DNA of 64,000 nt from a virus (IMGVR_UViG_3300009161_003648:21708-85707), one strand, 5' to 3'; positions 437-47,105 are shown, counted from the first letter of the stretch. Made by a program: numbers and translations. Notes: generated by a model not told the origin, from the letters alone.

Positions 437-474
437 TTTTTTTTATTTTTTTTATTATTTATTAAAATATATTA

Positions 475-759: not shown

Positions 760-769
760 ATTTTTGTTT

Positions 770-1561: not shown

Positions 1562-1573
1562 ATTTTATTTTTT

Positions 1574-2383: not shown

Positions 2384-2402
2384 TTTTTATTTTTTTTATT
2401 TT

Positions 2403-8621: not shown

Positions 8622-8626
8622 ATTAT

Positions 8627-10423: not shown

Positions 10424-10434
10424 CTTTTTTTAAT

Positions 10435-12246: not shown

Positions 12247-12311
12247 TATAATATATAAATATCAATTTTTTATTTAGCCTTCAATTCTTTTATTTATATT
12301 ACCATTATATA

Positions 12312-13511
12312 TTAAAATGATTCTAAATTTATTCTTTTCCAACCATTTTCTGTTTTTAAATACAGATAATTCTCATCTCTTGTAAGGTTACCTAAACTAC
12401 CTGATAAATCTTGTGATGATATTGGTGTAAAAATTGGGATAATTAAACCATTTGGTTTTAGATTTGTATTTGTTGTCCAATCACCGTTTTCATCGGTCTC
12501 TAAAAATGCGTTTTGATTTTCAGATATTGCGTGTAAAACAATAATACCACCACCTATTGATGTTTGGTGATTACCATTATAATTTAATTCAATATTATTA
12601 TCTTCAGCAACAACAGTTTGTGTGTTTAAACTTTCTCTGTTCACATTTATTGTAACATCACCATTTACCAATTCTTTTATTGCCTCAACCAATAACGCTG
12701 TAACATCTTTATAATGAACACTCATGTATTTACCATCATAATGTGTTAATTCTGGAACAACCTCATTTACCTCCTGTGCAATAAAACCTATTTTTGTTGC
12801 GTCTCCACCACTATTTCTATCTTTCCAATTAAATGTTACACCTCTAAGATTTAAAACTTTAGTTAATGCATCATCAATATTATTGATATTTTCTTTTAGG
12901 TTGATATCCGATGCGTTATTTACCAAAAAACCGTTATTATCAATACCAACGTCACGTGTGCCTGGTCCTGCACCAAGATTTGTTATTATCATTCTTTCAG
13001 TTCTAGTAATACCAGAAACGTCAACCCAAATTGTTCTACCTGTATAATCTAATGTACCAGCACTTAAATAAGTTAAAAGCGATGTTGTTACGGTACCAGT
13101 AAAAACACCAGCTGACGGACTAACACAAATTTGTGGGGTGATATCAAAACTAACACCTGAGTAATTTAAATAATAACTGTTTCCATCGGTTGACCCACTT
13201 GTATTACCTGTATATACTTGACCTGTATTTTGTGTTAAACCACTATTTGTACTTGTTATTGCCGATATACGCGAGTTAGCAATATTCATTTTTGTATTAT
13301 ACCAAGTAAAAACTGTAACGCCAGTATTACCTGAAAAAGTACTAAGAACACCAGATACTGTTGAAGTAACAGCTGTTGTTGTTAAATCTGGGCCTGTAGT
13401 TAAAGAGCTAAAAGTAACGCCAAACGCTGTTCCACCAGATAAAACACTAAATGTTTCAGGTTGTTGTTTTACTTGCCTTGTCGAAAAGTCTAATTTTGTT
13501 CTAAATTCCAT
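12312..13511 (-). CDS. Tail fibre protein with peptidase S74 intramolecular chaperone domain
   Basis: ASDINLKENI (Ser-Lys dyad), LRGVTFNWKD, IGFIAQEV, LLVEAIKEL match the S74 chaperone signature. Confidence 0.85.
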   Translation of the reverse strand: MEFRTKLDFSTRQVKQQPETFSVLSGGTAFGVTFSSLTTGPDLTTTAVTSTVSGVLSTFSGNTGVTVFTWYNTKMNIANSRISAITSTNSGLTQNTGQVYTGNTSGSTDGNSYYLNYSGVSFDITPQICVSPSAGVFTGTVTTSLLTYLSAGTLDYTGRTIWVDVSGITRTERMIITNLGAGPGTRDVGIDNNGFLVNNASDINLKENINNIDDALTKVLNLRGVTFNWKDRNSGGDATKIGFIAQEVNEVVPELTHYDGKYMSVHYKDVTALLVEAIKELVNGDVTINVNRESLNTQTVVAEDNNIELNYNGNHQTSIGGGIIVLHAISENQNAFLETDENGDWTTNTNLKPNGLIIPIFTPISSQDLSGSLGNLTRDENYLYLKTENGWKRINLESF

Positions 13512-13520
13512 TTTTATTGG

Positions 13521-13564
13521 TTTTATAATAAATATTCTACGTTTCTAATATATTTATTATAAAA
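13521..13564. promoter_or_regulatory. Back-to-back candidate late promoters: perfect 15-bp inverted repeat ATATTTATTATAAAA
   Basis: 13521-13535 (ttttataataaatat) and 13550-13564 (atatttattataaaa) sit 10 and 9 nt upstream of the divergent ATGs at 13511 and 13574. Confidence 0.7.
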
Positions 13565-13573
13565 GAATTATTT

Positions 13574-14050
13574 ATGCCTATTATTAAAAAACATGAATTA
13601 GAAGAGCTTGTTGGTAGTGATGGTACTGTTATTGGGGGTGATAGAAATGTTACAAGTAATTCAGAAATTGAAACAGGGCCAGTACAAAAACCATGGAATG
13701 ACAATTCTGATTATGAAAAAGGTATGTCAACAACTACTGATAGAGCAACTAGATATAGACAAAATATTCCTTGGTTTGCAGTTTATAGCTATCGTAGCTC
13801 AAGTGGTCGTGGTTTACCAATAAATGAAACAAATAAAACCAAAAATATCAAAAAAAAGAGTGAAATTGAAAAAGATATCACAGAAGATTTAGTTAAAAAA
13901 TCAAAAAGAGACCACGATATGATGGAAAAAAATTTTGATACTAAGGTTGAAAAAATGGTTGATACAATAGAAGATATTGATTTAAGTAAAGAACAGCTTA
14001 ATAAAATAAAAACTGCAATTATTAATAAATTAAAAGGAACTAATGCCTAA
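13574..14050 (+). CDS. Hypothetical protein, probable head-associated
   Basis: 158 aa; first gene of the divergent late-type operon; PINE/ITED motifs. Confidence 0.45.
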   Translation: MPIIKKHELEELVGSDGTVIGGDRNVTSNSEIETGPVQKPWNDNSDYEKGMSTTTDRATRYRQNIPWFAVYSYRSSSGRGLPINETNKTKNIKKKSEIEKDITEDLVKKSKRDHDMMEKNFDTKVEKMVDTIEDIDLSKEQLNKIKTAIINKLKGTNA

Positions 14051-17328: not shown

Positions 17329-17904
17329 ATGATTATGATTAAACAAGAACAAATTGTAAAAAACACTAAAAAGTATTTCCAAACGGCTCAAGAACAAGGG
17401 TTTATGACTGAAGAGTTGATGTCTTTTTTAGGTGAAACTTTTATTAAAGCGCCTGCATCAACTATGGCCGATTTAAATAACGCATTTGAAGGTGGTTTAA
17501 TTGACCATCTTTTGCGTGTAACAAAATATGCTGTTTCAATAAATGAAACTATCCTACCAGAAAATCTTAGATTACCAAAAAAAGATATTATTAAAGTTTG
17601 CTTTTTACACCAAATTGGTAAAGCGCATCTTTATGTCCCATGCACATCCGAATGGCATATTAAAAATCAAGGTAAATTATACGAATTTAATGATGGGCTA
17701 ACATCTATGCGTGTTGGTGAACGTTCAGCTCATTACGTATTAAGTAATGGTGTTACACTCACTGAAGAAGAATACCAAGCAATTATAAATTTTGATAAGG
17801 ACGATAGTGATAAACAAGCAAAATATCACAATTCATTATTGGGTGACCTATTAAAAATGGCTAACCAATTAGCAATCATTGAAGAAAAAAATCAAAAAAA
17901 CTAA
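17329..17904 (+). CDS. HD-domain-like phosphohydrolase (HD replaced by HQ)
   Basis: AFEGGLIDHLLRV...CFLHQIGK; family pattern is GGL..H....LLHDxGK. Confidence 0.65.
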   Translation: MIMIKQEQIVKNTKKYFQTAQEQGFMTEELMSFLGETFIKAPASTMADLNNAFEGGLIDHLLRVTKYAVSINETILPENLRLPKKDIIKVCFLHQIGKAHLYVPCTSEWHIKNQGKLYEFNDGLTSMRVGERSAHYVLSNGVTLTEEEYQAIINFDKDDSDKQAKYHNSLLGDLLKMANQLAIIEEKNQKN

Positions 17905-17905
17905 T

Positions 17906-18484
17906 ATGGATATAGCTGAAAAAATGAGACAAAGGATATTTGATATAATTGACCCAAATATCGATTATACACAAGAAGATTTTGAAAAAGAATTTGGTAA
18001 TATTGATTATAGCAAAAACAATAATTCAAATTTTAAATTGAATATTAATTTTGTAAATGAATCCACAAACCCAAATCCAGAATACGCAACCGAGGGTTCA
18101 TCAGGATTTGATTTAAGGGCAAATTTACAAACCCCTATCGAAATACCTAGTGGCGATATTCAAACCATTCCAACAGGATTATATTTTGAAATTCCACAAG
18201 GTCTTGAAATTCAAGTTAGACCAAGAAGTGGTTTAGCCGCAAAAAATGGTGTAACTGTTTTAAACACACCAGGCACCGTTGATTCAGATTACCGTGGTGA
18301 AGTTAAAGTAATACTTATTAATCATGGTAATAGAATATTTACCGTTAATCATGGGGATAGAATTGCACAAGCAGTTATTGCGTCAGTAATGGGTAAAAAC
18401 GTTATTGAATTAAACAAAACTTCAAAAATTTCAAACGATACTGTTAGAGCATCTAATGGTTTTGGTAGTACTGGGTTACAATAA
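17906..18484 (+). CDS. dut: Trimeric dUTPase (likely start 17906)
   Basis: All five motifs present: SSGFDL, RPRSG, GTVDSDYRGE, GDRIAQ, RASNGFGSTG. Confidence 0.95.
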   Translation: MDIAEKMRQRIFDIIDPNIDYTQEDFEKEFGNIDYSKNNNSNFKLNINFVNESTNPNPEYATEGSSGFDLRANLQTPIEIPSGDIQTIPTGLYFEIPQGLEIQVRPRSGLAAKNGVTVLNTPGTVDSDYRGEVKVILINHGNRIFTVNHGDRIAQAVIASVMGKNVIELNKTSKISNDTVRASNGFGSTGLQ

Positions 18485-18494
18485 AATAAAAAAA

Positions 18495-19487
18495 ATGAAA
18501 TTAGATTTTAACGATTTGTTAATCGTACCAAAAGAAATAACAAATATAAATAGTCGAACTGAAATCAATCCGTACATTTTTGCGATGCTACCATTAATTA
18601 CCGCACCTATGGACACTGTTGTATCCAAAGAAAATGCGGGTTTATATATTATTAATAATATAAATGTATGCCTACCTAGAAACGTAGACTGTGATTTAGG
18701 GTTTAAAGCATATTCAATATCTCAGATGAATGATTTATTAAATTCTAATAGAGGTATTTTAGAAAATGGGTATTATTTAATTGATGTTGCTAATGGGCAT
18801 ATGGATTCGGTAATAAACATCACAAAAAAAATTAAAAAACAATATCCAATTTTAAAATTAATGGTTGGCAATGTTGCTAATCCAGAAACATATCGATTAC
18901 TGTCTGAAGCTGGTGCAGATTACGTCAGAGTTGGCATTGGCAATGGTGGTGGTTGTTTAACAACACAAAATACAGGTGTTGGGTATCCAATGGCGTCATT
19001 GATTAAAGAATGTTATGATATATCTGCAACATTAAACAACCCCGCATATATAGTTGCTGATGGTGGAATGCAAACATACAGCGACATAATTAAAGCTCTT
19101 GCATTAGGTGCTGACTATGTTATGCTTGGTAGTGTTCTAAATAAATCACTTGAATCTGCTGGTGATAATTATCTTTGGAAAAAAATAAAGGTATCACAAA
19201 CAATGGCTGAAAAAGCGTATAAACTAGGTATACCTGTTTATAAAATGTTTAGAGGTATGAGCACCAAAGAAGTTCAAAAAAAATGGGGTGCTAAAGTCAT
19301 TAAAACTTCTGAGGGTGTTGTAAGATATCGAAGAGTAGAATACACCTTATCTCAATGGTCCGAAAACTTTGAACATTACTTACGTTCAGCAATGAGCTAT
19401 ACAGGTTCACACAAACTAAGCGAATTTATCGGTAAAGCAAACTTAATACAAATAACAAATAACTCATATAAAAGATTTAACAAATGA
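18495..19487 (+). CDS. guaC: IMP dehydrogenase / GMP reductase family, no CBS domains (likely start 18495)
   Basis: FNDLLIVP, LITAPMDTV, LIDVANGH, VGNVA, VGIGNGGGCLTT (catalytic Cys), IVADGG, ALALGADYVMLG, FRGM, SEG, LRSAMSYTG; GuaC versus GuaB not resolved. Confidence 0.85.
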   Translation: MKLDFNDLLIVPKEITNINSRTEINPYIFAMLPLITAPMDTVVSKENAGLYIINNINVCLPRNVDCDLGFKAYSISQMNDLLNSNRGILENGYYLIDVANGHMDSVINITKKIKKQYPILKLMVGNVANPETYRLLSEAGADYVRVGIGNGGGCLTTQNTGVGYPMASLIKECYDISATLNNPAYIVADGGMQTYSDIIKALALGADYVMLGSVLNKSLESAGDNYLWKKIKVSQTMAEKAYKLGIPVYKMFRGMSTKEVQKKWGAKVIKTSEGVVRYRRVEYTLSQWSENFEHYLRSAMSYTGSHKLSEFIGKANLIQITNNSYKRFNK

Positions 19488-30513: not shown

Positions 30514-31983
30514 ATGAAAGTTGCACTTCTAATATCAGGATATTTAAGAAATTATGAACCAAACTTAAACTTTATACAAAAAAAAATCGTTGATAAGTTT
30601 GATAACGTTGATGTGTATTTACACATAACAAAAAATGAAAATTCTGAAGATAAATACTTTAATTTAATCGATGAAGAAAAAGATTTCAAAAAAATCACAA
30701 GTGCGTTATCACCAACTGTAACACTAATAGAGAATAATGTTAAATATAGCGACAATACTATTATAAATGGTATCGCAAACCAATGGAATAAACTTTACAA
30801 GTTAAATAAATTAAAGCAAATTAACGAGAGCACATCAGGTGTAGAATACGATTTAGTTATACGCTATAGGCCAGACTTATCAATAAATAACTTAAATATT
30901 TTAGATTTTGATATTACTAAAAATACAATCTATATTCCAAAAGATAGTAAAATTGATAAACCAAAATTAAAATATTATAATGATGGATATCTATGCGATG
31001 CATTAGCGTTTGGACCCTCTAAATTAATGGACTTGTATTTTAATATTTACACAAGAATAAACGAATTAATAGAAAAATATGGTTCAGCGTCAGAAACGCT
31101 ATTGTATTATTATTTAAAAGATAATAATATTTCACATACATTAGTTGATATCGATTACAGCTTTATTTTATCAAAATGTAATGTTTTTGCAATATGCGGT
31201 GACTCTGGTTCGGGAAAAAGCACTTTAAGTAAAATACTTAAAGAATCTTTCTTTGATTCTTTTACCTTAGAATGCGATAGGTATCACAAATGGGAGAGAC
31301 ATAATGAAAATTGGGGCAAATTAACGCATCTAAATCCAGACGCAAACTATATCACAAAAATGAATGAAGATATTTTTAACTTAAAATTAGGTAAAGAAAT
31401 ATTTCAGGTTGACTATAATCACGAAAACGGAAAATTCACTGAAAAACAATTAATTAACCCGTCAAACAATTTAATTGTCTGCGGTCTACATAGTTTGTAC
31501 GATAAAAACTCTTCTTCTGTTTATGATATAAAAATTTTTATGGATACCGATGAAACATTAAAGAAAAAATGGAAAATAAAAAGAGATGTCACAGAAAGGG
31601 GTCATTCGGTTGAAAAAATACTAGACAGTATTAAAAAAAGAGAAGACGATTTTAAAGAATATATATTACCACAAAAAAACAACGCAGATGTTATTGTTAA
31701 TTTTTTTAGTAACGATGACATAGATTTAAATGATTTAAACCATGTTGAAAATCTTAGCCTTAAACTATCAATACATAAAAAATTTGAGATTAAAAATATT
31801 TTAAGTACATTTACAAATCAGAATATTAACTATTCAGTGGATAATTCAGACGAAAACTTTATAAAAATAGAATTTTTAGAATATAAACCAATTAATTTAT
31901 TTGGTGATGACACATCACTTAACACAAATACTTTTTATGATTATATAAAATATTTTATTTTTAATTTAATCTTTACAAATTAA
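30514..31983 (+). CDS. Fusion: putative glycosyltransferase (N-terminal) + phosphoribulokinase/uridine-kinase-like P-loop domain (C-terminal)
   Basis: N-terminal VALLISGYLR...YDLVIRYRPD; C-terminal GDSGSGKS Walker A, DRYHKWER, THLNPDAN, IVCGLH, KIFMDTDE..K.KWKIKRD..ERG. Confidence 0.8.
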   Translation: MKVALLISGYLRNYEPNLNFIQKKIVDKFDNVDVYLHITKNENSEDKYFNLIDEEKDFKKITSALSPTVTLIENNVKYSDNTIINGIANQWNKLYKLNKLKQINESTSGVEYDLVIRYRPDLSINNLNILDFDITKNTIYIPKDSKIDKPKLKYYNDGYLCDALAFGPSKLMDLYFNIYTRINELIEKYGSASETLLYYYLKDNNISHTLVDIDYSFILSKCNVFAICGDSGSGKSTLSKILKESFFDSFTLECDRYHKWERHNENWGKLTHLNPDANYITKMNEDIFNLKLGKEIFQVDYNHENGKFTEKQLINPSNNLIVCGLHSLYDKNSSSVYDIKIFMDTDETLKKKWKIKRDVTERGHSVEKILDSIKKREDDFKEYILPQKNNADVIVNFFSNDDIDLNDLNHVENLSLKLSIHKKFEIKNILSTFTNQNINYSVDNSDENFIKIEFLEYKPINLFGDDTSLNTNTFYDYIKYFIFNLIFTN

Positions 31984-32013
31984 CTTTTTTTTATTATTTT
32001 TTAAACAAAAACT

Positions 32014-32739
32014 ATGGATAAGCTATATCAAATTAGTAACGAAAACAAATTAAATATTATCGAACAAACAACATATGATAAATTTAATAATTTTATTTTT
32101 TCTGACGATTTAAAATTAACAGGTAAATTATTACACCGATTTGAACACTTTTTAAAAATTAAAGACCTACCTGGTGACATTGTTGAAATTGGTGTGTTTA
32201 AGGGCTCTGGTGTCTCTAGCTTCATGAAATTTATTGAAATCTATTGCCCCAACTCAAATAAAAAAGTTGTTGGTTTTGATATTTTTGACACTATTGAAGC
32301 TAAAGAAATTTTAGAAAAAGATAGCGATATCGATAAAGACAATATGTTGGTTGTCTATGATAGGGTTAAATCAGATGATTTAACAATTGAATCCGTAACT
32401 AAAAGACTCGAACAAACTAAAATAGATTCAAATAAATACAAATTAATAAAAGGGGATGTACAACATAGCATTCCAAAATTTTTAGATGAAAATTTAGGGT
32501 TTAGAATCTCATTATTATATATTGATGTAGATTTAGACAGACCAACGTATTATTCACTTAAATATTTGTGGGACCGAATCCTACCAGGTGGTGTAATTTT
32601 ATTTGATGAGTACGAATATCATAAATTTAGCGAAAGCACTGGTGTTGAAAGATTCTTAAAAGAAGTTGGACTTGATTATGATATAAAATCAACAAACTGG
32701 GTAGCACCAACAGCGTTTATGATTAAAAAAAGCTTTTAA
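32014..32739 (+). CDS. TylF/MycF/NovP-family sugar O-methyltransferase
   Basis: PGDIVEIGVFKG, VGFDIF, IKGDV, LLYIDVD, PGGVILFDEY. Confidence 0.85.
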   Translation: MDKLYQISNENKLNIIEQTTYDKFNNFIFSDDLKLTGKLLHRFEHFLKIKDLPGDIVEIGVFKGSGVSSFMKFIEIYCPNSNKKVVGFDIFDTIEAKEILEKDSDIDKDNMLVVYDRVKSDDLTIESVTKRLEQTKIDSNKYKLIKGDVQHSIPKFLDENLGFRISLLYIDVDLDRPTYYSLKYLWDRILPGGVILFDEYEYHKFSESTGVERFLKEVGLDYDIKSTNWVAPTAFMIKKSF

Positions 32740-32740
32740 C

Positions 32741-33421
32741 GTGGATGAGAAAGAAAAAAATATTAAAGAACTTATAGCCTTATCAACGCAGGTGTCAAAA
32801 TATTGTGTCGGTATGGAGGGTAATATATCCTCAAAAAATAAAGATACGTTGTTAATAAAAGCTAGCGGGGCTAAGTTATCTAATTTAACCGAAAGCGATT
32901 TAGTTGAATTTGATTTTAATGGACACCAACTTTCAAATTTTTCAAAAAAAGGGAGTATGGAATTAAGTTTTCATACTTTTTTATTGTCATTCAAAGATGT
33001 AAATTATATTTCACATACGCACCCAACAAACACTTTAAAAATATTATGTAGTTCGTTAGACAAAAAATTTGCAGTAAAAAGATTATTCCCAGACCAAGTT
33101 GTTTTTAATGGTGTGAAAGCATGTCTGGTACCATACGCAAAACCAGGTATTGAACTAACAAATTTAATAAAAAAACATGTGTCTGAATTTATTTCTGAAG
33201 AAAAGTACTTCCCAAAGTTGATTTTATTAAAAAATCATGGTATTATTGCATGTGGTAAGACAATTGACGAGTGTATCATAATAAGTGAAATTTGTGAAAA
33301 GTCTGCTGAAATATTTATCGGCGCTGTTAGCATTGATAATATAACATTTTTAACTGATGAATCGGTTAACGATTTATTAATTGATAAAAACGAAAAATAT
33401 AGACAAGAATTATTAAAATGA
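32741..33421 (+). CDS. Class II aldolase/epimerase (adducin family)
   Basis: EGNIS, IKASG, SMELSFH, HTHP, LKNHGIIACG (Zn-binding His residues). Confidence 0.85.
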   Translation: MDEKEKNIKELIALSTQVSKYCVGMEGNISSKNKDTLLIKASGAKLSNLTESDLVEFDFNGHQLSNFSKKGSMELSFHTFLLSFKDVNYISHTHPTNTLKILCSSLDKKFAVKRLFPDQVVFNGVKACLVPYAKPGIELTNLIKKHVSEFISEEKYFPKLILLKNHGIIACGKTIDECIIISEICEKSAEIFIGAVSIDNITFLTDESVNDLLIDKNEKYRQELLK

Positions 33422-33711
33422 AAGTTATTTACGTTGATATAGATGAGACTATATGTGAAACACCAGAACCAAGAAATTATTTTAATGCGAAACCAATATA
33501 CGAAAATATTTCTAAAATAAATAAATTATACGATGAAGGTAATACAATCGTATATTGGACGGCTAGAGGTAGCAGAACCCAAATAAATTGGTATGAATTA
33601 ACAAAAAAACAACTAATTGAATGGGGCGCAAAACATCATGAACTAAATGTTAGCAAACCGTATTATGATTTATTTATTGACGATAAAACAATTAGAATAG
33701 AAGAAATATGA
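33418..33711 (+). CDS. Small HAD-like phosphatase
   Basis: YVDIDET (motif I), YWTARG, KP.YDLFIDDK. Confidence 0.8.
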   Translation: MKVIYVDIDETICETPEPRNYFNAKPIYENISKINKLYDEGNTIVYWTARGSRTQINWYELTKKQLIEWGAKHHELNVSKPYYDLFIDDKTIRIEEI

Positions 33712-34199
33712 TATTAATATCACACAGAGGTAACATAGTCGGACCAAATAAACAAAGGGAAAACATGCCATCTTATATAGATACAGCCATATCAGCAGGA
33801 TATGAGGTAGAGGTGGATGTAAATTATATTAATGGCGTTTTTTATCTGGGCCATGACACACCAGATATCGAAATAAGCGAAGTTTGGATAAAAAAAAGAA
33901 AAAATAAAATATGGTTTCATTGTAAAAACATGCAAGCTGCTGCTAGATTTAAAGAGTTAGAAAATTTAACTGGTGAAAGTTATAAATTTTTTTGTCACAC
34001 ATCAGATACGTTTGTCTTAACCAGTACAAACCATATATGGGTTCACGACTTAAATTTAGATTTGAACGATAAATGCATAATTCCACTTTTAAGTGATAAA
34101 GATGTTACCAGTTATAATGGAAATATTGTACATGCTGTTTGTACAGATTACATTTCATTTGCCAAATTTAATTTAAAAGAAAAAGGCTTATATAAATAA
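33708..34199 (+). CDS. Glycerophosphodiester phosphodiesterase-like (PLC-like) protein
   Basis: ISHRGN, EVEVDV, LGHD, WFHCKN, VCTDY. Confidence 0.75.
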   Translation: MILISHRGNIVGPNKQRENMPSYIDTAISAGYEVEVDVNYINGVFYLGHDTPDIEISEVWIKKRKNKIWFHCKNMQAAARFKELENLTGESYKFFCHTSDTFVLTSTNHIWVHDLNLDLNDKCIIPLLSDKDVTSYNGNIVHAVCTDYISFAKFNLKEKGLYK

Positions 34200-34202
34200 A
34201 AT

Positions 34203-35093
34203 ATGAAAAACTCACTTATATGGACTAACCCATCTATCACTTGTTTAGGTGATAGACTAGTTGATACTATGATATTATCAACCTATGCTAAAATAATTGA
34301 TGCTGACCTATATTTTCCATGGAAAGACTGTCCATTTACAATAGGTGGCGGCAAAAACCCAACCTATTCTTATAAAGAAGATGAAAACAAAACGTGGGAT
34401 GCGGTTAGATTTGAAGATTATAAATTTGAAAATTATTCAAAATATTTTAACTTACCAAAAAATATTAAAATAAACGAAACAACAAATAATATAACACATT
34501 ATTTTAATGATGTTTTAGGTGGTTGTGTATCGCCACAACTTTTTTATAGAAAATATGTTTCTGATATATGTTCATTAGAAGAATTTAATAAAGTGTTTAA
34601 AGAAACAATGAATGAATTTAAACCAACAGAAAATTTATTAAAATTAGTTGGAAACAAACCAAAACCAAATGTTTCTGTTCATTTGAGAAGGACAGATAAA
34701 ATAAATGTTCGGGGCGATTATAGTAGCTTTATGACATATGAGGGATTAGACTATTTAAATGATATTACCAAAGAAGCTATAGGTAAATTAAACGGTGATG
34801 ATAAATTATTTTATTTTTCATCTGATGATAAAAATGAAAGAAATAAATACCATCTTTTATATTCAAATCATATCGAACACGAAACCAATTGTACCGATAT
34901 TGAAAAAACGTACATAGATTTATACATGTTGTCTATTAGTGAATATATAATATTATCACAAGTGCATTCAAATTTTTCTGTTTTTGCTTCATATATAAAT
35001 AATTCAAAATTAGTATATCTTTATGATAATTGCATGATTGTTACGCAAGAGTTTAATGGTAACGATAATTTTATATACTATAAAAATCTTTAA
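34203..35093 (+). CDS. Fucosyl/colitosyltransferase-like GT (GT11/GT23 clan)
   Basis: LGDRL, SVHLRRTDK, FSSDD, DLYMLS..EYII....SNFS. Confidence 0.7.
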   Translation: MKNSLIWTNPSITCLGDRLVDTMILSTYAKIIDADLYFPWKDCPFTIGGGKNPTYSYKEDENKTWDAVRFEDYKFENYSKYFNLPKNIKINETTNNITHYFNDVLGGCVSPQLFYRKYVSDICSLEEFNKVFKETMNEFKPTENLLKLVGNKPKPNVSVHLRRTDKINVRGDYSSFMTYEGLDYLNDITKEAIGKLNGDDKLFYFSSDDKNERNKYHLLYSNHIEHETNCTDIEKTYIDLYMLSISEYIILSQVHSNFSVFASYINNSKLVYLYDNCMIVTQEFNGNDNFIYYKNL

Positions 35094-35105
35094 AAACACA
35101 TACAC

Positions 35106-35708
35106 ATGACTTATACCAAACAAGATTTAATAAACTTTGAGGAAGACATTGCCGAATGTTTCAATAACGCATTAATTAAAGCACCTGTTCATTTATATTA
35201 TGGTAATGAAAAACAAATGTTAGATATTTTTAAAAATATAAAAAATGAAGACTGGGTTTTTTGTACATGGCGCTCACATTATCAGTGTTTATTAAAAGGT
35301 GTACCACAAGAAATTATTAAACAGGATATATTAAATGGAAAATCAATAACACTTTGTTATCCTGAATATAATATATATTCATCAGCAATTGTTGGCGGAA
35401 ATATCCCAATTGCAACTGGTGTTGCACTAGATATAAAAAGAAAAAATCAAGCAAATCACGTATGGTGTTTTGTTGGCGATATGGCTTCTGAAACGGGTAC
35501 ATTTTTTGAAAATTGGAAATACAGTATAAATCATGATTTACCAATTACTTATGTGATAGAAAATAACTCTAAATCCGTATGTACAGATACACTAAAAACA
35601 TGGAACACTAACGAATTATTTTTTAAGAATGAAACAAGAAAAATAATTTATTATGAATACGAAAATAAATACCCACATGCTGGTGCAGGTAAAAGAATAC
35701 AATTTTAA
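35106..35708 (+). CDS. TPP-dependent E1-alpha-like subunit (short)
   Basis: APVHL..GNE, TWRSHY, IVGGNIP.A.G, GDMASETG (GDG-type TPP motif)...ENN. Confidence 0.85.
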   Translation: MTYTKQDLINFEEDIAECFNNALIKAPVHLYYGNEKQMLDIFKNIKNEDWVFCTWRSHYQCLLKGVPQEIIKQDILNGKSITLCYPEYNIYSSAIVGGNIPIATGVALDIKRKNQANHVWCFVGDMASETGTFFENWKYSINHDLPITYVIENNSKSVCTDTLKTWNTNELFFKNETRKIIYYEYENKYPHAGAGKRIQF

Positions 35709-35710
35709 AT

Positions 35711-36247
35711 ATGAAATATTTTGACGAATTAAAACGCTCAATGGACTGGTTAGGCGAAAAGCCAGACACTTTATTTTTAGGTCAAGCTGTTGAATATGAC
35801 GGAACTGCAATAACAAATACATTAAAAGGTGTTAATAGAAATAAATTACTTGAAATGCCAGTCAATGAAGAAATGCAAATGGGGATGACGCTTGGTTTAG
35901 CACTGAACGGCACAGTACCTATTTCTATCTTTCCAAGATGGAATTTTCTTTTGTTAGGTGCAAATCAATTAATTAACCATATTGACAAAATAAAAATAAT
36001 GTCTAATGATGGCTACAAACCAAAGATAATTATTAGAACTGCTATTGGCTCACAAAGACCACTACATCCACAACATCAACACATTTCAGATTTTACCCCT
36101 TCATTTAAAGGCATGTGCGATTTTGTTGATATTATTAAACTAGACGAAGCAAACCAAATATTTGATGCGTTTAAATATGCATATGAAAGAACTGACAATA
36201 GACCTACGTTATTAGTTGAATGGGGTGATTATTATGGTGAAAAATAA
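35711..36247 (+). CDS. TPP-dependent E1-beta/transketolase pyrimidine-binding subunit (lacks C-terminal domain)
   Basis: LGQAV, LEMPVNEEMQMG..LGLAL.G, HPQH; only 178 aa. Confidence 0.8.
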   Translation: MKYFDELKRSMDWLGEKPDTLFLGQAVEYDGTAITNTLKGVNRNKLLEMPVNEEMQMGMTLGLALNGTVPISIFPRWNFLLLGANQLINHIDKIKIMSNDGYKPKIIIRTAIGSQRPLHPQHQHISDFTPSFKGMCDFVDIIKLDEANQIFDAFKYAYERTDNRPTLLVEWGDYYGEK

Positions 36248-36252
36248 AAATT

Positions 36253-37239
36253 ATGTTAGGAATAAATTCTAAATATGAAAATGTTAATTTTTTAAAGTTA
36301 AAAAATAAAACAATACTAATAACAGGTGCATCTGGTTTGGTCGGTATTAATTTATTATCGTCACTAAAACCAATACAAAAAGAATATAATATTACAATTT
36401 ATATCTGGGCTAAAAATGAAAATAAAATTTTTGATTCATTATTTGAAGACTGTGTAAAAATTGTTAATGATATCACAGATTTCAATGCCTTTACTAACCT
36501 TCCAAAATTTGACTATATTATTCATTCTTCAGGATATGGTCAACCCTTTAAATTTTTATCGGATAAATTAAAAACAATTCAAATTAATACCTCATCAACA
36601 ATAAAACTATTAGAATTATTGAAAGATGACGGTACTTTTTTGTTTATTAGCTCTAGCGAAGTTTATAATGGGTTATTTAAACACGAAATTAACGAGAATG
36701 AAATTGGTATGACAAATACACAACATCCAAGAGCACCATATATTGAAGGTAAAAAATGCGGAGAGGTAATATGTGACGCATATCGTGAAATGGGTAAAAA
36801 TATTAAAATTGCTAGATTAAGTATTGCTTATGGTCCAGGTACTAAAATTGGTGATACACGTGTTATTAATTCTTTAATAGATAAAGGGTTAAATAACGAC
36901 TCAATTGAATTAATGGATGATGGTAGCTCATTAAGAACATTTTGTTATATTTCCGATGTAATAGAAATGCTTTGGAATATAACATTAGATGGTAAAGACT
37001 TCATATATAATGTTGGTGGTATTGACACATTAAGTATTTTTGAGTTAGCGCATAAGATTGCAAAAATACTTGACAAAAGTGTTATTTTACCTATATTAAA
37101 CAAAGAATTAGTTGGTAGTCCAAAATTGGTAAATTTATCAATCCAAAAATACATAAATGAATTTGGTAAAGATAGTTTTACCCCAATTGATATTGGTTTG
37201 GCTGAAACAATTAATTGGCAAAAAAAATTAAATAGATGA
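36253..37239 (+). CDS. NAD-dependent epimerase/dehydratase/reductase (extended SDR, UXS-like)
   Basis: ITGASGLVG, ISSSEVY, YIEGK (YxxxK), ARL..AYGPG, DG...RTFCYISD. Confidence 0.85.
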   Translation: MLGINSKYENVNFLKLKNKTILITGASGLVGINLLSSLKPIQKEYNITIYIWAKNENKIFDSLFEDCVKIVNDITDFNAFTNLPKFDYIIHSSGYGQPFKFLSDKLKTIQINTSSTIKLLELLKDDGTFLFISSSEVYNGLFKHEINENEIGMTNTQHPRAPYIEGKKCGEVICDAYREMGKNIKIARLSIAYGPGTKIGDTRVINSLIDKGLNNDSIELMDDGSSLRTFCYISDVIEMLWNITLDGKDFIYNVGGIDTLSIFELAHKIAKILDKSVILPILNKELVGSPKLVNLSIQKYINEFGKDSFTPIDIGLAETINWQKKLNR

Positions 37240-38396
37240 AAGAAGTTAAATTAATCAATGATACAATTAACAAAACAGACATAACCGAATTAATTAAATG
37301 GTTAGAAACAAATCCAAGATTAACAAAAGGTGAATTAACAATTGAATTTGAAAAAAAATGGTCTAAATGGCTCGGTCGAAAATATTCTGTTTTTGTTAAC
37401 TCTGGGTCATCGGCTAATTTGGCTATGGTATATGCGCTAATGCTATCAAACAGATTAAAAAACAATAAAATTGTTATCCCATCAGTTTCATGGACAACAA
37501 CAGTAACGCCAGCAATTCAATTAGGTTTAGAACCAATATTGTGCGAATGCGATGACGAAACATTAGGTGTTGATATTGAAAATTTTAAAAAAATTATTAC
37601 CGAACATAAACCAGCCGCATTAATGTTGGTACATGTTTTAGCATTTCCTTGTAAAATGGACGAAATAATACAATTGTGTAATGACAATGATATTATTTTA
37701 ATTGAAGACTCTTGCGAATCAATCGGTTCAACATTTAACGGTATTAAAACTGGTAATTTTGGATTAATGAGTACCTTTTCGTTTTATTATGGACACCACA
37801 TATCAACGATTGAAGGTGGTATGATATCAACTGACGATAAAGAAATATATAATTTATTATTAGCAATAAGGTCACATGGATGGGATAGAGACTTTGATAA
37901 AGAATCACAATCACTTATTAGGTCTGAAAATAATATTGATGACTTTAGGGGTCTTTTTACATTTTATTACCCAGCCTTTAATTTAAGGTCAACCGACTTA
38001 CAAGCGTTTATTGGGTTAAGACAAATTGAAAAAATTGATAGCTTTTCTGAAATAAGAAATAAAAATTTTAAACTTTATAACTCGTTAGTTATAAATGATT
38101 TTTGGAAAATTAAAGACAATGATAATTGTTTTTATTCTAACTTTGCATATCCTGTAATAACACCTAATATAATTGAATTATCCAAAGAACTTCAATCAAA
38201 TAATATTGAATGCAGACCACTAGTTTGCGGCTCAATAGGATTACAACCGTTTTGGAAAAAACTTTATGGTGAAGTAAATTTTGAGTTTGCTAACAAAGTT
38301 CATAATTATGGCCTATATTTACCAAATCATATCGAGGTGATTGAAGATGATATAAAAAATATAACAAATATTATAAATAAACATACTAAAATTTAA
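37236..38396 (+). CDS. colD: GDP-4-keto-6-deoxymannose 3-dehydratase (ColD-type PLP enzyme of the DegT/DnrJ family)
   Basis: NSGSSANL, EDSCES.G, FSFYYGHHISTIEGG (His where aminotransferases have the Schiff-base Lys), RSHGW, ECRP; 386 aa with no evident Fe-S cysteine cluster of E1/DdhC. Confidence 0.75.
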   Translation: MKEVKLINDTINKTDITELIKWLETNPRLTKGELTIEFEKKWSKWLGRKYSVFVNSGSSANLAMVYALMLSNRLKNNKIVIPSVSWTTTVTPAIQLGLEPILCECDDETLGVDIENFKKIITEHKPAALMLVHVLAFPCKMDEIIQLCNDNDIILIEDSCESIGSTFNGIKTGNFGLMSTFSFYYGHHISTIEGGMISTDDKEIYNLLLAIRSHGWDRDFDKESQSLIRSENNIDDFRGLFTFYYPAFNLRSTDLQAFIGLRQIEKIDSFSEIRNKNFKLYNSLVINDFWKIKDNDNCFYSNFAYPVITPNIIELSKELQSNNIECRPLVCGSIGLQPFWKKLYGEVNFEFANKVHNYGLYLPNHIEVIEDDIKNITNIINKHTKI

Positions 38397-38399
38397 ATT

Positions 38400-38999
38400 A
38401 TGGAACATTGGTTAATTGATGAAGCAAATTATTTTAATACAATTAAAGACAATTGTAATATTATTTTTGACATTGGTGCGTCTTATTCACCATATGTTGA
38501 ATACCCACAAGAAGTACACTATTTTGACCCACAACCATCAGTTATTGAAAACCTAAAACAATTACCGAATAATAATATTAAAAGTTTTTTTAATGAGTTT
38601 GGTTTGAGCGATGAAGAAGCTATATTGCCATTTTATAGATACGGTGATTTTGTAACCGTTACGGAATATAAAATGGGTGATTTTAAATTAAAAGTTGGTA
38701 AAGACTATATGGTAGAAAATAATTTAACAAAAATTGATTTTTTAAAAATTGATGTTGAAGGTTTTGAATTAAAGGTTTTAAAAGGTTTTGGTGAATATCT
38801 TAATAATGTTAAATATATTCAATTTGAATACGGTACTGGCTTAAGAGATGCTGGTTCAAATTTATCAGAAGTTGTAACATATTTAAAATCTTTTGGTTTT
38901 GATAATTTTAGTATAATAAATTCAGGTGTTATTCTTACTGATTATACTGATAATTGGCAATTATGTAATATTGCGTGTATTAATAAAAAATTGGTTTAA
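38400..38999 (+). CDS. FkbM-family SAM methyltransferase
   Basis: IFDIGA, IDFLKIDVEGFE..VLKG, YIQFEYG. Confidence 0.85.
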   Translation: MEHWLIDEANYFNTIKDNCNIIFDIGASYSPYVEYPQEVHYFDPQPSVIENLKQLPNNNIKSFFNEFGLSDEEAILPFYRYGDFVTVTEYKMGDFKLKVGKDYMVENNLTKIDFLKIDVEGFELKVLKGFGEYLNNVKYIQFEYGTGLRDAGSNLSEVVTYLKSFGFDNFSIINSGVILTDYTDNWQLCNIACINKKLV

Positions 39000-39008
39000 A
39001 AATATATT

Positions 39009-39911
39009 ATGAATAAATTATTAGTAACAGGGGCAAATGGATTAGTCGGCTCTGCAATTAATGCCGATGTAAAGATTGGTAAAGAATACGATTTACGAGA
39101 CGCTAATGCGACAAATAAATTGTTTTTAGAACATAAACCAACACATGTAATTCATTGTGCTGGTAAAGTTGGCGGTCTTGGCGGTAACATGAATTTCAAG
39201 GGTGAATATTTCTATGACAATATTATGATTAATACAAATGTTATAGAGTCGGCAAGAAAAAACGGTGTTGAAAAATTAGTATCGTTTTTGTCGACTTGTA
39301 TTTTCCCAAATAATATTGAATACCCATTGACAGAATCGAAAATACATTTAGGTGAACCTAATTATACAAACTACCCATATGCTTATGCAAAAAGAATGGC
39401 CGACATTCAAATAAGAGCGTATCGTGAACAATACGGTATTAAATATACGTCTGTTATTCCAACCAATATTTATGGGCCAAATGATAAATTTTCATTAGAG
39501 CAAGGTCACGTTGTTCCGATGTTAATACATAAACTTTATTTATCATTAATGAACAATACTGATTTTATTGTTTGGGGGTCTGGAAAACCATTAAGAGAAT
39601 TTATTTATTCAAAAGATGTCGCTAAATTAGCTGAATGGGCAATTTATAATTATGATGAATCAGAACCAATAATTTTTAGTACATCAGAAGAAATTAGTAT
39701 TGTTGATTTGGTTGATTTATTAGTTAAAGAATTTAACTACAAGGGTAGGGTGATATTCGATTCAACCAAACCAGATGGACAATTAAGAAAACCATCTGAT
39801 AATAGCAAATTAAAAAAATATTTACCTAACTTTGAGTTCACGCCTATAGAAATTGGGATTAAAGAAACCGTTAACTGGTTTTTAGAAAATTATGAAACAA
39901 TAAGAAAATAA
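39009..39911 (+). CDS. fcl: GDP-L-fucose synthase / GDP-colitose synthase (epimerase-reductase)
   Basis: TGANGLVG, AGKVGG..GN, LSTCIFP, YAYAK, TNIYGPND, HVVPMLI, WGSGKPLREF. Confidence 0.9.
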   Translation: MNKLLVTGANGLVGSAINADVKIGKEYDLRDANATNKLFLEHKPTHVIHCAGKVGGLGGNMNFKGEYFYDNIMINTNVIESARKNGVEKLVSFLSTCIFPNNIEYPLTESKIHLGEPNYTNYPYAYAKRMADIQIRAYREQYGIKYTSVIPTNIYGPNDKFSLEQGHVVPMLIHKLYLSLMNNTDFIVWGSGKPLREFIYSKDVAKLAEWAIYNYDESEPIIFSTSEEISIVDLVDLLVKEFNYKGRVIFDSTKPDGQLRKPSDNSKLKKYLPNFEFTPIEIGIKETVNWFLENYETIRK

Positions 39912-39963: not shown

Positions 39964-41541
39964 ATGTACGATAATATACAATTAATAATACCAATGTCTG
40001 GGGTTGGAAAAAGATTTATTGAATCTGGATATACAACACCAAAACCATTAATTGAAGTTGATAAAAAACCAATAATAGAACATGTTGTAAATTTGTTCCC
40101 AAATGTAAAAGATATTACATTTATATGTAATAAAAAACATTTAAATGAAACAAACATGCGTGAAATATTATTATCTATTGCACCGTCTTGTAAAATTATT
40201 GAAGTTCCAAATGAAAATAGACGCGGACCCGTAGATGCTGTTTGTCAAATAATCGATAATATTGACGAAAATAAAGAAACAATTATTAGTTATTGTGATT
40301 ATGGTACATATTGGAATTTTGATAAGTTTATTGAAACCGCTAGAAAAGGCGATTATCAAGGTTCAATATCTTGCTATAGGGGTTTTCATCCACATATGTT
40401 AGGTTCTGATAATTATGCTTTTTGTAAAGAAGAAAATAAAGAACTTATACAGATAAAAGAAAAAGAAGCATTTACCGATAACAAAATGAATGAATTTGCT
40501 TCAAACGGTACGTATTATTTTAAAAGTGGTTCAATCGTAAAAAAATACTTTAAAGAATTAATTGATTTAGACATTAATTTAAACGGTGAATATTATGTTA
40601 GTTTAGTTTATAATTTATTGGTAAAAGATAACTTAAAAGTTAATATTTTTGAAATTGAAAATATGTTACAATGGGGTACACCGTATGATTTAGAAGTTTA
40701 TAAAGGTTGGTCAAATTATTTTAATAAGGTAAATAATAAAAATACAACTAAACATTCTTATGAATATGATGTAACAATGATTTTACCAATGGCTGGTAGA
40801 GGTAGTAGATTTACAACTGACGGATACGAATTACCAAAACCATTAATTAATATTGATGGAAAACCAATGGTGGTACAAGCAATCAATAATTTACCTAAAA
40901 CAAAAGACCATATTTTTATTTGTTTAGACGAACACATTAACGAACACGCAATAGATGAAATTTTAAAAAACGAATACCCAAAATCAAAAATTGTTTCTTT
41001 AGATAAAACAACTGAAGGACAAGCATGTACATGTGAAATTGGTATGTTAGAAACAAATATTGATTTAGAAAAACCAATTTTAATTTCAGCATGCGATAAC
41101 GGTGTTTTATATAATGAAGATAAATTTAATGAACTATATTTAGACGAATCTATCGATGTTATTGTTTGGTCTTTTAGAAACAATCAGACTAGCAAAGTAA
41201 ACCCAAATATGTACGCTTGGTTAGACGTTGATAAAAATGACTTTATTAAATATGTTTCATGTAAAAATTTTATATATGATGACCCATTAAAAACACACGC
41301 AATTATTGGTACAATGTTTTTTAGAAAAGGTAAATATTTTATAGATAATTTAAAATTAAATTACGAAAAAAATATAAGGGTTAATAATGAATTTTATGTT
41401 GATGACGTATTAAATCGTTGTATTGAAAACAATTTAAAAGTTAAGGTTTTTGAGGTTGAAAACTATATTTGTTGGGGCACACCAGACGATTATAAAACAT
41501 ACAATTATTGGAAAGATTATTTTAACAAAATTAAAAAATAA
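39964..41541 (+). CDS. Tandem two-domain NDP-sugar nucleotidyltransferase
   Basis: Two copies of the signature: IPMSGVGKRF..GY..PKPLI and LPMAGRGSRF..GY..PKPLI; each ends in WGTP.D. Confidence 0.85.
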   Translation: MYDNIQLIIPMSGVGKRFIESGYTTPKPLIEVDKKPIIEHVVNLFPNVKDITFICNKKHLNETNMREILLSIAPSCKIIEVPNENRRGPVDAVCQIIDNIDENKETIISYCDYGTYWNFDKFIETARKGDYQGSISCYRGFHPHMLGSDNYAFCKEENKELIQIKEKEAFTDNKMNEFASNGTYYFKSGSIVKKYFKELIDLDINLNGEYYVSLVYNLLVKDNLKVNIFEIENMLQWGTPYDLEVYKGWSNYFNKVNNKNTTKHSYEYDVTMILPMAGRGSRFTTDGYELPKPLINIDGKPMVVQAINNLPKTKDHIFICLDEHINEHAIDEILKNEYPKSKIVSLDKTTEGQACTCEIGMLETNIDLEKPILISACDNGVLYNEDKFNELYLDESIDVIVWSFRNNQTSKVNPNMYAWLDVDKNDFIKYVSCKNFIYDDPLKTHAIIGTMFFRKGKYFIDNLKLNYEKNIRVNNEFYVDDVLNRCIENNLKVKVFEVENYICWGTPDDYKTYNYWKDYFNKIKK

Positions 41542-41547
41542 AAAAAA

Positions 41548-42531
41548 ATGGATAAAAAAATTGGATTAATTATTGGTGCCAACGGGCAAGATGCATCATA
41601 CTTAGCTGAATTTTTGATTGAAAAAGATTATATTGTTCATGGAACAATAAGAAGAAATTCAGTACCTGAATCACAAACAACAAGAATTCAACATTTACAC
41701 AATACACAAGCTATATCATTACACTATATGGATTTAACAGACCCACTTAGTGTTGAGAAAATTATAAGTGATATTAAACCAGATGAAATATATCATCTTG
41801 CGGCGCAAAGTCATGTACAAATAAGTTTTGAGTTACCAAAATACACTTTAGATGTTAATGCTGGTGGTACATTAGCAATACTTGAGGCTGTTAGAAAGTT
41901 TTCACCTAATTCAAAAGTTTATCACGCGGCAACCTCAGAAATGTTTGGTAATGCATGTGATACGGATGGGTATCAAAGAGAAACAACACCTATGATGCCT
42001 GTATCACCATATGGTTGTAGTAAACTATATGCACATACTCTTTGTCATAATTATAGAAATGCTTACGATTTATTTATCTGTTCTGGAATTTTGTTCAATC
42101 ACGAAAGCCCAAGAAGAGGTATTAATTTTGTCACAAATAAAGTAGTTTTAGAAGCGGTAAAAATAAAATTAGGGTTATCAAATGAATTAGTTTTAGGTAA
42201 TTTAAGCTCAATGAGAGATTGGGGTCATGCTAAGGATTATATCAAAGGAATGTGGTTAATGTTACAACAAGAGACACCAGATGACTACGTATTGGCTACT
42301 GGAATATCTAAAAGTGTAAATGAATTAATCGATTATGTTTTTAACAAATTGGAATTAAATCGTGAAAAGTATGTAAAAACTGATAAAAAATTTGAAAGGG
42401 CGGAAGAATTAAATTATTTAAGAGGTGATGCTAGCAAAGCGATTACCAAACTAGGCTGGAAATATGAATATACCTTTGAATTAATGATGGATGAAATGAT
42501 TAATTATTGGCTTGAAAAATTAAAAAAATAA
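41548..42531 (+). CDS. gmd: GDP-mannose 4,6-dehydratase
   Basis: GANGQDASYL, LAAQSHVQISF, TSEMFG, PVSPYGCSK, GILFNHESPRRG..FVT.K, RDWGHAKDY. Confidence 0.95.
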   Translation: MDKKIGLIIGANGQDASYLAEFLIEKDYIVHGTIRRNSVPESQTTRIQHLHNTQAISLHYMDLTDPLSVEKIISDIKPDEIYHLAAQSHVQISFELPKYTLDVNAGGTLAILEAVRKFSPNSKVYHAATSEMFGNACDTDGYQRETTPMMPVSPYGCSKLYAHTLCHNYRNAYDLFICSGILFNHESPRRGINFVTNKVVLEAVKIKLGLSNELVLGNLSSMRDWGHAKDYIKGMWLMLQQETPDDYVLATGISKSVNELIDYVFNKLELNREKYVKTDKKFERAEELNYLRGDASKAITKLGWKYEYTFELMMDEMINYWLEKLKK

Positions 42532-46376: not shown

Positions 46377-47105
46377 ATGGTTAACAAAAGAGGACGCAAA
46401 AGAAAAAACGAAATGTATTTTGGTCCAGATGAAGAAAGAGCCGTTAACGAATATTTAGCATCTACTGATGACACAGAAAGAAACTTAATTTACAATCAAT
46501 GGTTAAAAGAACCATTAGATAAAATGATAGAATCTATTATTAGAAAGTATAAATTATATAGAAAGGGTGAAACGTTTGAGGATTTACATAGCGACACCCT
46601 TTCTTTTCTAATGACAAAAGCTCATAAGTTTGAAAATGCTAGAGGTAAAAAAGCTTATTCTTACTATGGGACAATATGCAAACATTACATATTGGGGTTA
46701 TTAATCAAGGATGAAAAACATACCAAACAAACAGCATCCTATGAAGATATATCTTCCGACATAGAACAACGTAAAGACCTAAGCTATGTTATTGATGAAG
46801 ATGATTTTTCAATGGATGAGTTTTTTAAAAAACTTACGAATGGTATTAAAGATGAATTAAATGATGAAAATTTACCACCCAAGAAAAAGCTAACCGATAA
46901 TGAAAAAAAAGTTGGCCAGTCATTAATCGAAATATTACAACATTGGGAAACATCATTTGATGCTATGAGCGGTGGTTCAAAATATAATAAAAACTCCGTA
47001 CTAGAGACCATGAGAAATTATACCAATTTATCAACAAAAGATATACGATTGGCTATGAGAAGATTTAAAGATTTATATGAATTTTTAAAATACCAAAATC
47101 CGTAA
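46377..47105 (+). CDS. gp55: Phage sigma factor, T4 gp55-like (late transcription)
   Basis: FEDLHSD...AHKF...KKAYSYYGTICKHYILGLLIKDEK parallels the region-2 pattern F...K.KNPF.YFT.I...F.R.I.KEK of gp55 homologs. Confidence 0.65.
   Translation: MVNKRGRKRKNEMYFGPDEERAVNEYLASTDDTERNLIYNQWLKEPLDKMIESIIRKYKLYRKGETFEDLHSDTLSFLMTKAHKFENARGKKAYSYYGTICKHYILGLLIKDEKHTKQTASYEDISSDIEQRKDLSYVIDEDDFSMDEFFKKLTNGIKDELNDENLPPKKKLTDNEKKVGQSLIEILQHWETSFDAMSGGSKYNKNSVLETMRNYTNLSTKDIRLAMRRFKDLYEFLKYQNP

Follow-up and report, generated by a model that had tools for sequence, protein, structure and literature searches.

The window analysed in this study is a 64-kb stretch of viral DNA (64,000 nucleotides; IMGVR_UViG_3300009161_003648:21708-85707), and the system in question is a set of four genes within it that may encode a route to a guanosine diphosphate (GDP)-linked, C-branched 3,6-dideoxy sugar. 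The four core open reading frames (ORFs) lie exactly at 35106-35708, 35711-36247, 36253-37239 and 37236-38396, all on the + strand, and are translationally coupled, with gaps of 2-5 nt or an overlap of 4 nt between them. They form part of a 40-kb block of same-strand genes with a G+C content of 25-30%. In order, they encode a minimal E1-alpha-like subunit of a thiamine diphosphate (ThDP) enzyme (alpha, 200 aa), a minimal E1-beta-like subunit without a C-terminal domain (beta, 178 aa), an extended short-chain dehydrogenase/reductase (SDR, 328 aa) and a ColD-type 3-dehydratase (386 aa). An initial annotation of the window had described this succession of genes, and the ORFs, profile matches and structure matches agree with it. 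The core genes are regarded as real rather than chance ORFs because alpha has 7703 matches among database proteins at E<=1e-5; the best 120 of these are all at least 79% identical.

Reduced E1-like subunits beside a 3-dehydratase

Alpha (35106..35708, + strand) comprises a PP domain only and matches E1_dh with 61 bits and PDH_E1_alph_y with 96 bits. Its Pfam match covers only positions 6-179 of the 300 in the E1_dh profile, and the C-terminal third of E1 alpha is absent. The motif GDM...ENN aligns with the GDG...ENN ThDP/Mg motif of human E1 alpha, and among 28 family members the invariant residues include H29, D49, G124, N154 and H191, while D125 is at least 90% conserved. Beta (35711..36247, + strand) comprises a Pyr domain only, with a Transket_pyr match (28 bits) over residues 15-170, no Transketolase_C domain, 38.7 bits to the PDH E1 beta model and, among solved structures, 44 bits to Pyrobaculum E1 beta (1ik6). 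In 125 distinct homologs, E53 and Q123-H124 of beta are at least 95% conserved, and E53 aligns with the Glu of the P-I-S-E-M motif of human E1 beta, which we take to be the cofactor-activating Glu59. The scores of both subunits fall far under the NCBIfam equivalog cutoffs (96 versus 394 for alpha, 38.7 versus 321 for beta), and a scan of ORFs at 16-54 kb revealed no E2, E3 or lipoyl genes. A YerE-type architecture was not found either, as alpha gives only a weak TPP_enzyme_C match (26 bits, beneath E1_dh) and no N or M domain. As predicted from these features, the pair is a stripped-down E1-type ThDP enzyme of the alpha-keto acid dehydrogenase 2 superfamily in which the cofactor-binding and cofactor-activating residues are kept. 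For one naturally fused alpha-beta protein, the AlphaFold model (pLDDT 74.5, pTM 0.80) confirms the PP-Pyr fold expected of the pair; it matches DXS, transketolase and E1 beta alike and does not tell these functions apart, because all of them have the PP-Pyr fold.

The pair shares its PP and Pyr folds and its ThDP/Mg motif with the E1 component (alpha2beta2) of pyruvate and branched-chain 2-oxoacid dehydrogenases, as well as two residues of beta, the activating Glu and the active-site His, and the PDH E1 alpha and beta models are its best family matches. Thus, the pair could be a central-carbon auxiliary metabolic gene, namely the E1 of a pyruvate or acetoin dehydrogenase whose E2 and E3 come from the host, but this is extremely improbable. 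Unlike dehydrogenase E1, beta here is without the E2-binding C-terminal domain and alpha is without its C-terminal region, an E2/E3 partner is missing, the scores fall below the family cutoffs as given above, and the pair stands inside a glycan operon at all loci examined. Since these domains and partners are missing, the pair fails membership of the dehydrogenase-complex E1 enzymes, and its acting as a pyruvate or acetoin dehydrogenase was dismissed on the same grounds; the initial annotation, in which a pyruvate dehydrogenase had been discounted, was correct in this respect. By gene content, the pair instead fits the genomic definition of E1-like sugar-branching pairs, as a much reduced form of them.

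The fourth gene (37236..38396, + strand) encodes a putative pyridoxamine or pyridoxal 5'-phosphate (PMP/PLP)-dependent GDP-4-keto-6-deoxymannose 3-dehydratase, with 219 bits to the DegT profile and RfbH as its best NCBIfam match. It is closer to ColD (234 bits to 2gms) than to the Fe-S cytidine diphosphate (CDP)-sugar dehydrase E1 3bcx (135 bits), and at 386 aa it compares with 437 aa for the latter. In the stretch FYYGHHISTIEGG, a His stands at the site of ColD H188, which is mutated in the 3b8x and 2r0t entries (H188N, H188K); GHH of the query is aligned with SHH of ColD, and the first His occupies the H188 position. The source of substrate for a ColD-type enzyme is present in the same cluster as Gmd, GDP-mannose 4,6-dehydratase (41548..42531, + strand; GDP_Man_Dehyd 375 bits; TIGR01472 377 bits with a cutoff of 415; 327 bits to Arabidopsis MUR1, 1n7g). 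Both the ColD-type assignment and the suggestion that Gmd and ColD could supply GDP-4-keto-3,6-dideoxymannose had been made in the initial annotation, and both families are indeed found in the operon. It also encodes a GDP-L-fucose synthase or ColC-like 3,5-epimerase-4-reductase (39009..39911, + strand; 310 bits to the eukaryotic GDP-fucose synthase 6aqy; GDPFucSynFcl 235 bits, below the cutoff of 500). As such an Fcl/ColC-like gene occurs in every Gmd-type cassette examined, colitose and/or fucose are probably made as well. Judged by these families, a GDP-linked 3,6-dideoxy sugar is very probably the product of the operon.

Distribution and genomic neighborhood of the pair

Relatives of alpha are widespread, with approximately 118 clusters (50% identity level) that match it at E<=1e-30 and are mostly about 200 aa long. 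Pattern scans identified relatives in at least 586 IMG/VR viral contigs and in 349 species-representative bacterial genomes, some of them on Mb-sized contigs; the bacterial scan was built on a 12-sequence alignment. Among the bacterial carriers are Nitrospira, Verrucomicrobiota, Pelagibacteraceae, SAR116, Planctomycetes, Massilia, Piscinibacter and Spirulina, the last three with the cultured strains Massilia sp. LXY-6, Massilia sp. 2TAF26, Piscinibacter sp. MQ-18 and Spirulina sp. CCY15215. The alpha/beta module is therefore not rare in phages, and the statement of the initial annotation that no such route was known in a phage fails as a claim of rarity, also because a distant homolog, in fused form, is found in cyanophages S-SM2 and P-TIM68. 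Literature searches (heptose/radical SAM/thiamine; O-antigen/E1) found no description of the alpha/beta cassette, and a survey of pelagimyophages mentions gene islands related to lipopolysaccharide but not the enzyme formed by the pair (PMC7029224).

To describe the neighborhood of the pair, 160 loci were retrieved, and the 85 flanked by 6 kb or more on each side (36 viral, 49 bacterial) were counted for neighbors within 10 kb of it. A DegT homolog of the His type was found in 35/36 viral and 46/49 bacterial loci, or 81/85 in total, and all DegT proteins inspected individually have His at the Lys position, usually in a FxxYxxHH...EGG motif. A pair standing apart from 4-keto-sugar genes had been named beforehand as a result that would refute the initial annotation; the His-type 3-dehydratase adjoining the pair at nearly all of these loci is the opposite result. 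In addition, a B12-binding radical S-adenosylmethionine (SAM) enzyme was present in 29/36 viral and 38/49 bacterial loci, a 312-aa SDR in 35/36 and 43/49, and heptose-activation genes (HddA-like GHMP kinase, PfkB or SIS) in 33/36 and 44/49, respectively.

The commonest cassette, seen in the sister loci L005-L088 and L089-L168, contains a Cj1427-like C4-dehydrogenase, a B12 radical SAM enzyme, alpha, beta, a His-type DegT protein, an HddA-like kinase and, often, an RmlC-like cupin. The 312-aa SDR of these cassettes scores 346 bits to PDB 6vo6, which we take to be Cj1427, although a text search for '6VO6' did not confirm this. Together with the C3-dehydratase of Campylobacter jejuni HS:5, Cj1427 produces GDP-3-deoxy-4-keto-heptose in vitro (PMC10680097), and since the 312-aa SDR is Cj1427-like, the common cassette is, by this similarity, GDP-heptose based. 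The window represents a rare variant with Gmd as the source of the 4-keto sugar, a 328-aa SDR after beta, and no heptose or radical SAM genes. L003/L004, L036 and a Bacteroidetes metagenome-assembled genome (L158) carry the Gmd-type set as well, and the 328-aa type of SDR is found in approximately five loci. L004 (JGI contig Ga0634395_00012, 277 kb) contains the same cluster as L003 with fragmented DegT, SDR and PhoH genes; these fragments look like long-read frameshift errors and not real pseudogenes.

Radical SAM genes were found in 66/83 heptose-type versus 0/3 Gmd-only loci (Fisher p = 0.011, with small n and loci that are not phylogenetically independent), and the nearest families of the enzyme are HpnJ, PhpK and BchE. 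A role for the pair as a PMP regenerator, or as an electron source for the radical SAM enzyme, was considered and set aside, since radical SAM genes are absent from the window although the pair is there, and since glutamate serves ColD-type enzymes for the recycling of PMP (PMC10680097). Of the 36 viral loci, 21 have the Cj1427-like C4-dehydrogenase as their sole extended SDR within 10 kb and no visible C4 reductase, while a C4 reductase is the last enzyme of all known 3-deoxy or 3,6-dideoxy routes (PMC10680097). The 4-keto group would therefore be consumed otherwise, which fits the formation of a C-C bond at the C4 carbonyl. Because the pair tracks the 3-dehydratase over both heptose and Gmd backbones, it most likely acts on a 3-deoxy-4-keto nucleotide sugar and not on the supply of sugar phosphates.

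Natural fusions tie the pair to nucleotide-sugar enzymes, and include alpha-beta (P0169, P0279), SDR-alpha (P0277) and GT11-like-alpha proteins (P0271-P0275). The gene preceding alpha in the window (34203..35093, + strand) encodes a 296-aa GT11-like protein, a candidate GDP-sugar glycosyltransferase without a Pfam match that carries the motif HLRRTDK. It is in the same frame as alpha, with a stop and four codons between the two, and P0271-P0275 are read-through fusions of 422-502 aa (up to 10 member sequences and 8 contigs) with 73% and 85% identity to the two proteins of the window. Among look-alikes of the 296-aa protein in the ESM Atlas, one cluster has Glyco_transf_11 in 27% of its members, which serves as a lead only. 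A different extension occurs in L169 (P0150, 553 aa), where an alpha homolog has a 338-aa N-terminal extension with a faint LAGLIDADG match and may be a fusion related to a homing endonuclease or an intein.

Proposed pathway and alternatives

The first enzymes of the proposed pathway are Gmd and a tandem double nucleotidyltransferase of 525 aa (39964..41541, + strand), a candidate sugar-1-phosphate guanylyltransferase with two NTP_transferase-type stretches and 46% identity to SSM2_204 of S-SM2. On the strength of their families, they would together make GDP-4-keto-6-deoxy-D-mannose, from which the ColD-type enzyme, with PMP renewed from glutamate, is expected to take off the 3-OH to give GDP-4-keto-3,6-dideoxy-D-mannose. 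Alpha and beta would then decarboxylate pyruvate to hydroxyethyl-ThDP and transfer this acyl-anion equivalent to the C4 carbonyl, yielding a 4-C-acetyl tertiary alcohol, and the SDR, which is NADP-type in appearance, might turn the branch ketone into a 1-hydroxyethyl group, giving a GDP-linked isomer of yersiniose. The sugar may be methylated by an FkbM-family methyltransferase (38400..38999, + strand; TIGR01444 52.8 bits, over its cutoff; Methyltransf_21), a probable sugar O-methylation enzyme, and may be transferred by the GT11-like protein. The Fcl/ColC-like enzyme would draw on the same intermediates to make GDP-fucose and/or GDP-colitose in parallel. The resulting glycan probably modifies the surface of the host, possibly SAR11, as has been proposed for other large marine phages.

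The best reading of the locus, to which we give moderate confidence by analogy, is that of one GDP-sugar operon whose alpha/beta pair adds a pyruvate-derived acetyl branch at C4, because E1-like pairs (AviB1/B2, Pau11/12, KbDH) add pyruvate-derived acetyl branches to keto-sugars. Branching of keto-sugars with a C2 unit was shown by genetics for AviB1/B2 and Plm8/9 (= Pau11/12) (PMC4802897, PMC4753412), KbDH-alpha/beta was studied in vitro with pyruvate and cyclic ketones (PMC12247030), and sugar branching by EvdU5/EvdS3 is a proposal (PMC10338323). E1-like pairs seem to be restricted to C2 branches, in which the branch ketone is afterwards reduced, methylated, oxidised or transaminated (PMC12247030).

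Several observations weigh against a C4 acetyl branch, in addition to those on the SDR and the distant homologs that are discussed below. The subunits are much shorter than those of the characterised pairs, and the Gmd, ColD and Fcl-like genes alone would, by their families, amount to a complete colitose-type route for which no branch is needed. Three bacterial loci (L112, L121, L154) carry the pair without a 3-dehydratase. Additionally, SAR11 locus L141 (5033-10597; Pelagibacteraceae single-cell genome AG-470-I11) contains, in one glycan cluster, a 566-aa protein of the acetolactate-synthase/YerE type, an E1-like pair of 279 and 305 aa, and the minimal pair of 200 and 178 aa, together with a B12 radical SAM enzyme and two DegT proteins; since an acetolactate-synthase/YerE-like ThDP enzyme is co-present, branching in L141 could belong to another enzyme.

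The role of the SDR (36253..37239, + strand; Epimerase 115 bits) is ambiguous and is the weakest part of the pathway, as the protein is a candidate NADPH-dependent branch-ketone reductase but could also be UXS/ArnA-like or dehydratase-like. Among solved structures it scores highest against human UXS (100 bits), and SSSEVY, PYIEGKK and GSSLR, which align with the S-S-E, YxxxK and Arg (of GSxxR) residues of human UXS, are conserved in L003, L036 and L158; because its closest solved relatives are uridine diphosphate (UDP)-glucuronate decarboxylases, reduction of the branch is one option only. These similarities would suit two routes in one operon, an arrangement that we consider unlikely, in which plain GDP-L-colitose (and GDP-fucose) is the product of Gmd, ColD and the Fcl/ColC-like enzyme, and the SDR, as a UXS/ArnA-type decarboxylase or a dehydratase, makes another nucleoside diphosphate (NDP)-4-keto sugar (e.g., UDP-4-keto-xylose) that is branched by alpha/beta. 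A precedent exists in the eurekanate proposal with EvdS6 and EvdU5/EvdS3 (PMC10338323), and the Fcl-like gene is indeed constant in Gmd-type cassettes, in all of which (window, L003, L036, L158) the SDR directly follows beta to form a contiguous alpha-beta-SDR triplet. However, no UDP-glucose dehydrogenase (Ugd) is detectable within the 64-kb window, the SDR scores 44 bits against the UDP-xylose synthase NCBIfam model with its cutoff of 294, and over the 85 loci the pair tracks the His-type 3-dehydratase and not the 328-aa SDR. Moreover, the SDR family has an Ile-Trp type sequence in place of V-D-N at the end of strand beta2 and lacks the NAD+-binding acidic residue there, while a genuine UXS-like protein in L102 does carry one. 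Because of this missing residue and the lack of a detectable Ugd in the window, we lean towards an NADPH-dependent reductase of the branch, as the initial annotation had suggested, with a decarboxylase or dehydratase as the main alternative; its assignment of the SDR is weakened by the relationship to UDP-glucuronate decarboxylases.

The distant homologs, at 35-39% identity, occur in S-SM2, P-TIM68 and a 735-kb phage, and those of the two cyanophages are fused alpha-beta proteins assigned to PHROG 34187 (function unknown). No 3-dehydratase was found in the whole S-SM2 and P-TIM68 genomes or around the homolog of the 735-kb phage, so that the association with the 3-dehydratase stops at homologs below approximately 40% identity. 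The fused cyanophage proteins stand instead among SIS, PfkB kinase, class II aldolase and nucleotidyltransferase genes, and the window and S-SM2 have in common the aldolase, two small proteins (97 and 163 aa), a GT61 protein and the double nucleotidyltransferase (41-65% identity). It is thus conceivable, if quite improbable, that the pair is a small transketolase/DXS-like enzyme or a 2-oxoacid decarboxylase whose product, a chain-extended sugar phosphate or an aldehyde, would be the precursor for the neighboring module of kinase, class II aldolase, HAD and nucleotidyltransferase genes that the window shares with S-SM2. The model of the fused homolog does align over both domains to DXS and transketolase, but a fold search is blind to the difference between E1, transketolase and DXS, and the sequence itself resembles E1 (96 bits to PDH E1 alpha) rather than transketolase (21 bits). 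In addition, the pair almost always adjoins a 3-dehydratase and is kept in Gmd-type cassettes without sugar-phosphate genes (L158, L036).

Beyond the genes assigned to the pathway, PhoH lies downstream of Gmd, and upstream of alpha are many glycosyltransferases, a PRK-type kinase fusion, a TylF methyltransferase, a class II aldolase and two small proteins, followed by the 296-aa protein. The module at 30514-34199 consists of the PRK-type kinase fusion, the TylF methyltransferase, the aldolase, the 97-aa protein, which is weakly HAD-like, and the 163-aa protein (PHROG 34507); the last three, the GT61 gene (26955) and the double nucleotidyltransferase (39964) are the genes with counterparts among SSM2_204-208 of S-SM2. 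Two genes at the head of the glycan island (17879-19487), one dUTPase-like and the other IMPDH/GMP-reductase-like, may be nucleotide-pool genes feeding GDP-sugar synthesis. Just downstream of the island (46377-47105), a 242-aa protein with a weak Sigma70_r2 match (20.5 bits, under the cutoff) is a possible phage sigma factor. The phage nature of the window is seen in its tail-fibre-like and T4-type major-head proteins, with a capsid that is T4-like at 34-43% identity. The DNA of the region and of positions 1-14000 had no match among 50,697 phage records, nor did a protein search with a 603-aa ORF find one, and the window represents a marine phage without a close cultured relative.

Relationship to known systems and implications

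The pair resembles those of actinomycetes (AviB1/AviB2, Pau11/12, AlmDI/DII, EvdU5/EvdS3, KbDH-alpha/beta) in its adjacent E1-alpha- and E1-beta-like genes without E2/E3 and in its place in a deoxysugar cluster beside NDP-keto-sugar enzymes, a likeness of gene content and context. It differs from them in its single-domain subunits (200 and 178 aa) and in its tight coupling to a His-type 3-dehydratase. Furthermore, it is found in glycan operons for GDP-sugars (Gmd/ColD or GDP-heptose) of phages and of mostly Gram-negative or uncultured bacteria, in contrast to the deoxythymidine diphosphate (dTDP)- or UDP-sugar antibiotic clusters of actinomycetes. The proposed chemistry is also that of YerE/YerF in the yersiniose A pathway of Yersinia pseudotuberculosis, and of the YerE-like ErwE and MygE, in which ThDP-dependent acyl addition to C4 of a 4-keto-3,6-dideoxy sugar supplied by a PMP-dependent 3-dehydratase is followed by NAD(P)H reduction (PMC9306805). 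However, YerE, which acts on a 4-keto-3,6-dideoxy CDP-sugar (PMC9306805), is a single-chain flavoenzyme of the acetolactate-synthase type (TPP_enzyme_N/M/C), whereas the enzyme predicted here is an E1-type heteromer with a GDP-sugar as its substrate; by domain content, YerE is an analogue of the pair and not a member of its family. With the GDP-L-colitose pathway of Escherichia coli O55/O111, the window has in common Gmd, a ColD with His in place of Lys and an Fcl-like epimerase/reductase, and the heptose-type sister cassettes match the in vitro chemistry of Cj1427 and the C3-dehydratase in the GDP-3,6-dideoxy-heptose pathway of C. jejuni (PMC10680097). Both of those pathways end in a C4 reductase and have no ThDP enzyme, whereas here a ThDP pair and an extra SDR are inserted beside ColD.

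A broader proposal, which is tentative and on balance doubtful, is that the minimal pair represents a large family of GDP-keto-sugar C-acylating enzymes in phages and more than 300 bacterial species. The product of the window might then be a new GDP-linked 4-C-(1-hydroxyethyl)-3,6-dideoxyhexose, the yersiniose isomer mentioned above, and the heptose cassettes could close the C4 acetyl branch onto C7, giving a caryose-type carbocyclic nonose (4,8-cyclo-3,9-dideoxy-nonose). HpnJ and BchE, two of the families nearest to the radical SAM enzyme, both build five-membered carbocycles. The biosynthesis of caryose has been reported as not known (PMC9092360). The caryose-type closure is speculation and applies to the heptose cassettes only, not to the window.

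To our knowledge, YerE-type enzymes have been the explanation to date for C-branched sugars in the surface glycans of Gram-negative bacteria, and we know of E1-type branching pairs from actinomycete antibiotics only. If the proposed function is correct, GDP-sugar 3-dehydratases would usually be partnered by a much smaller E1-type carboligase, both in abundant phages of marine and fresh waters and in Nitrospira, Verrucomicrobiota, SAR11 and others, and a set of undescribed branched, possibly carbocyclic, sugars would be predicted on environmentally dominant cells. The pairs would also provide compact ThDP catalysts with which tertiary alcohols could be synthesised. In addition, large marine phages would be found to carry complete routes to rare sugars, presumably for remodelling the surface of their hosts.

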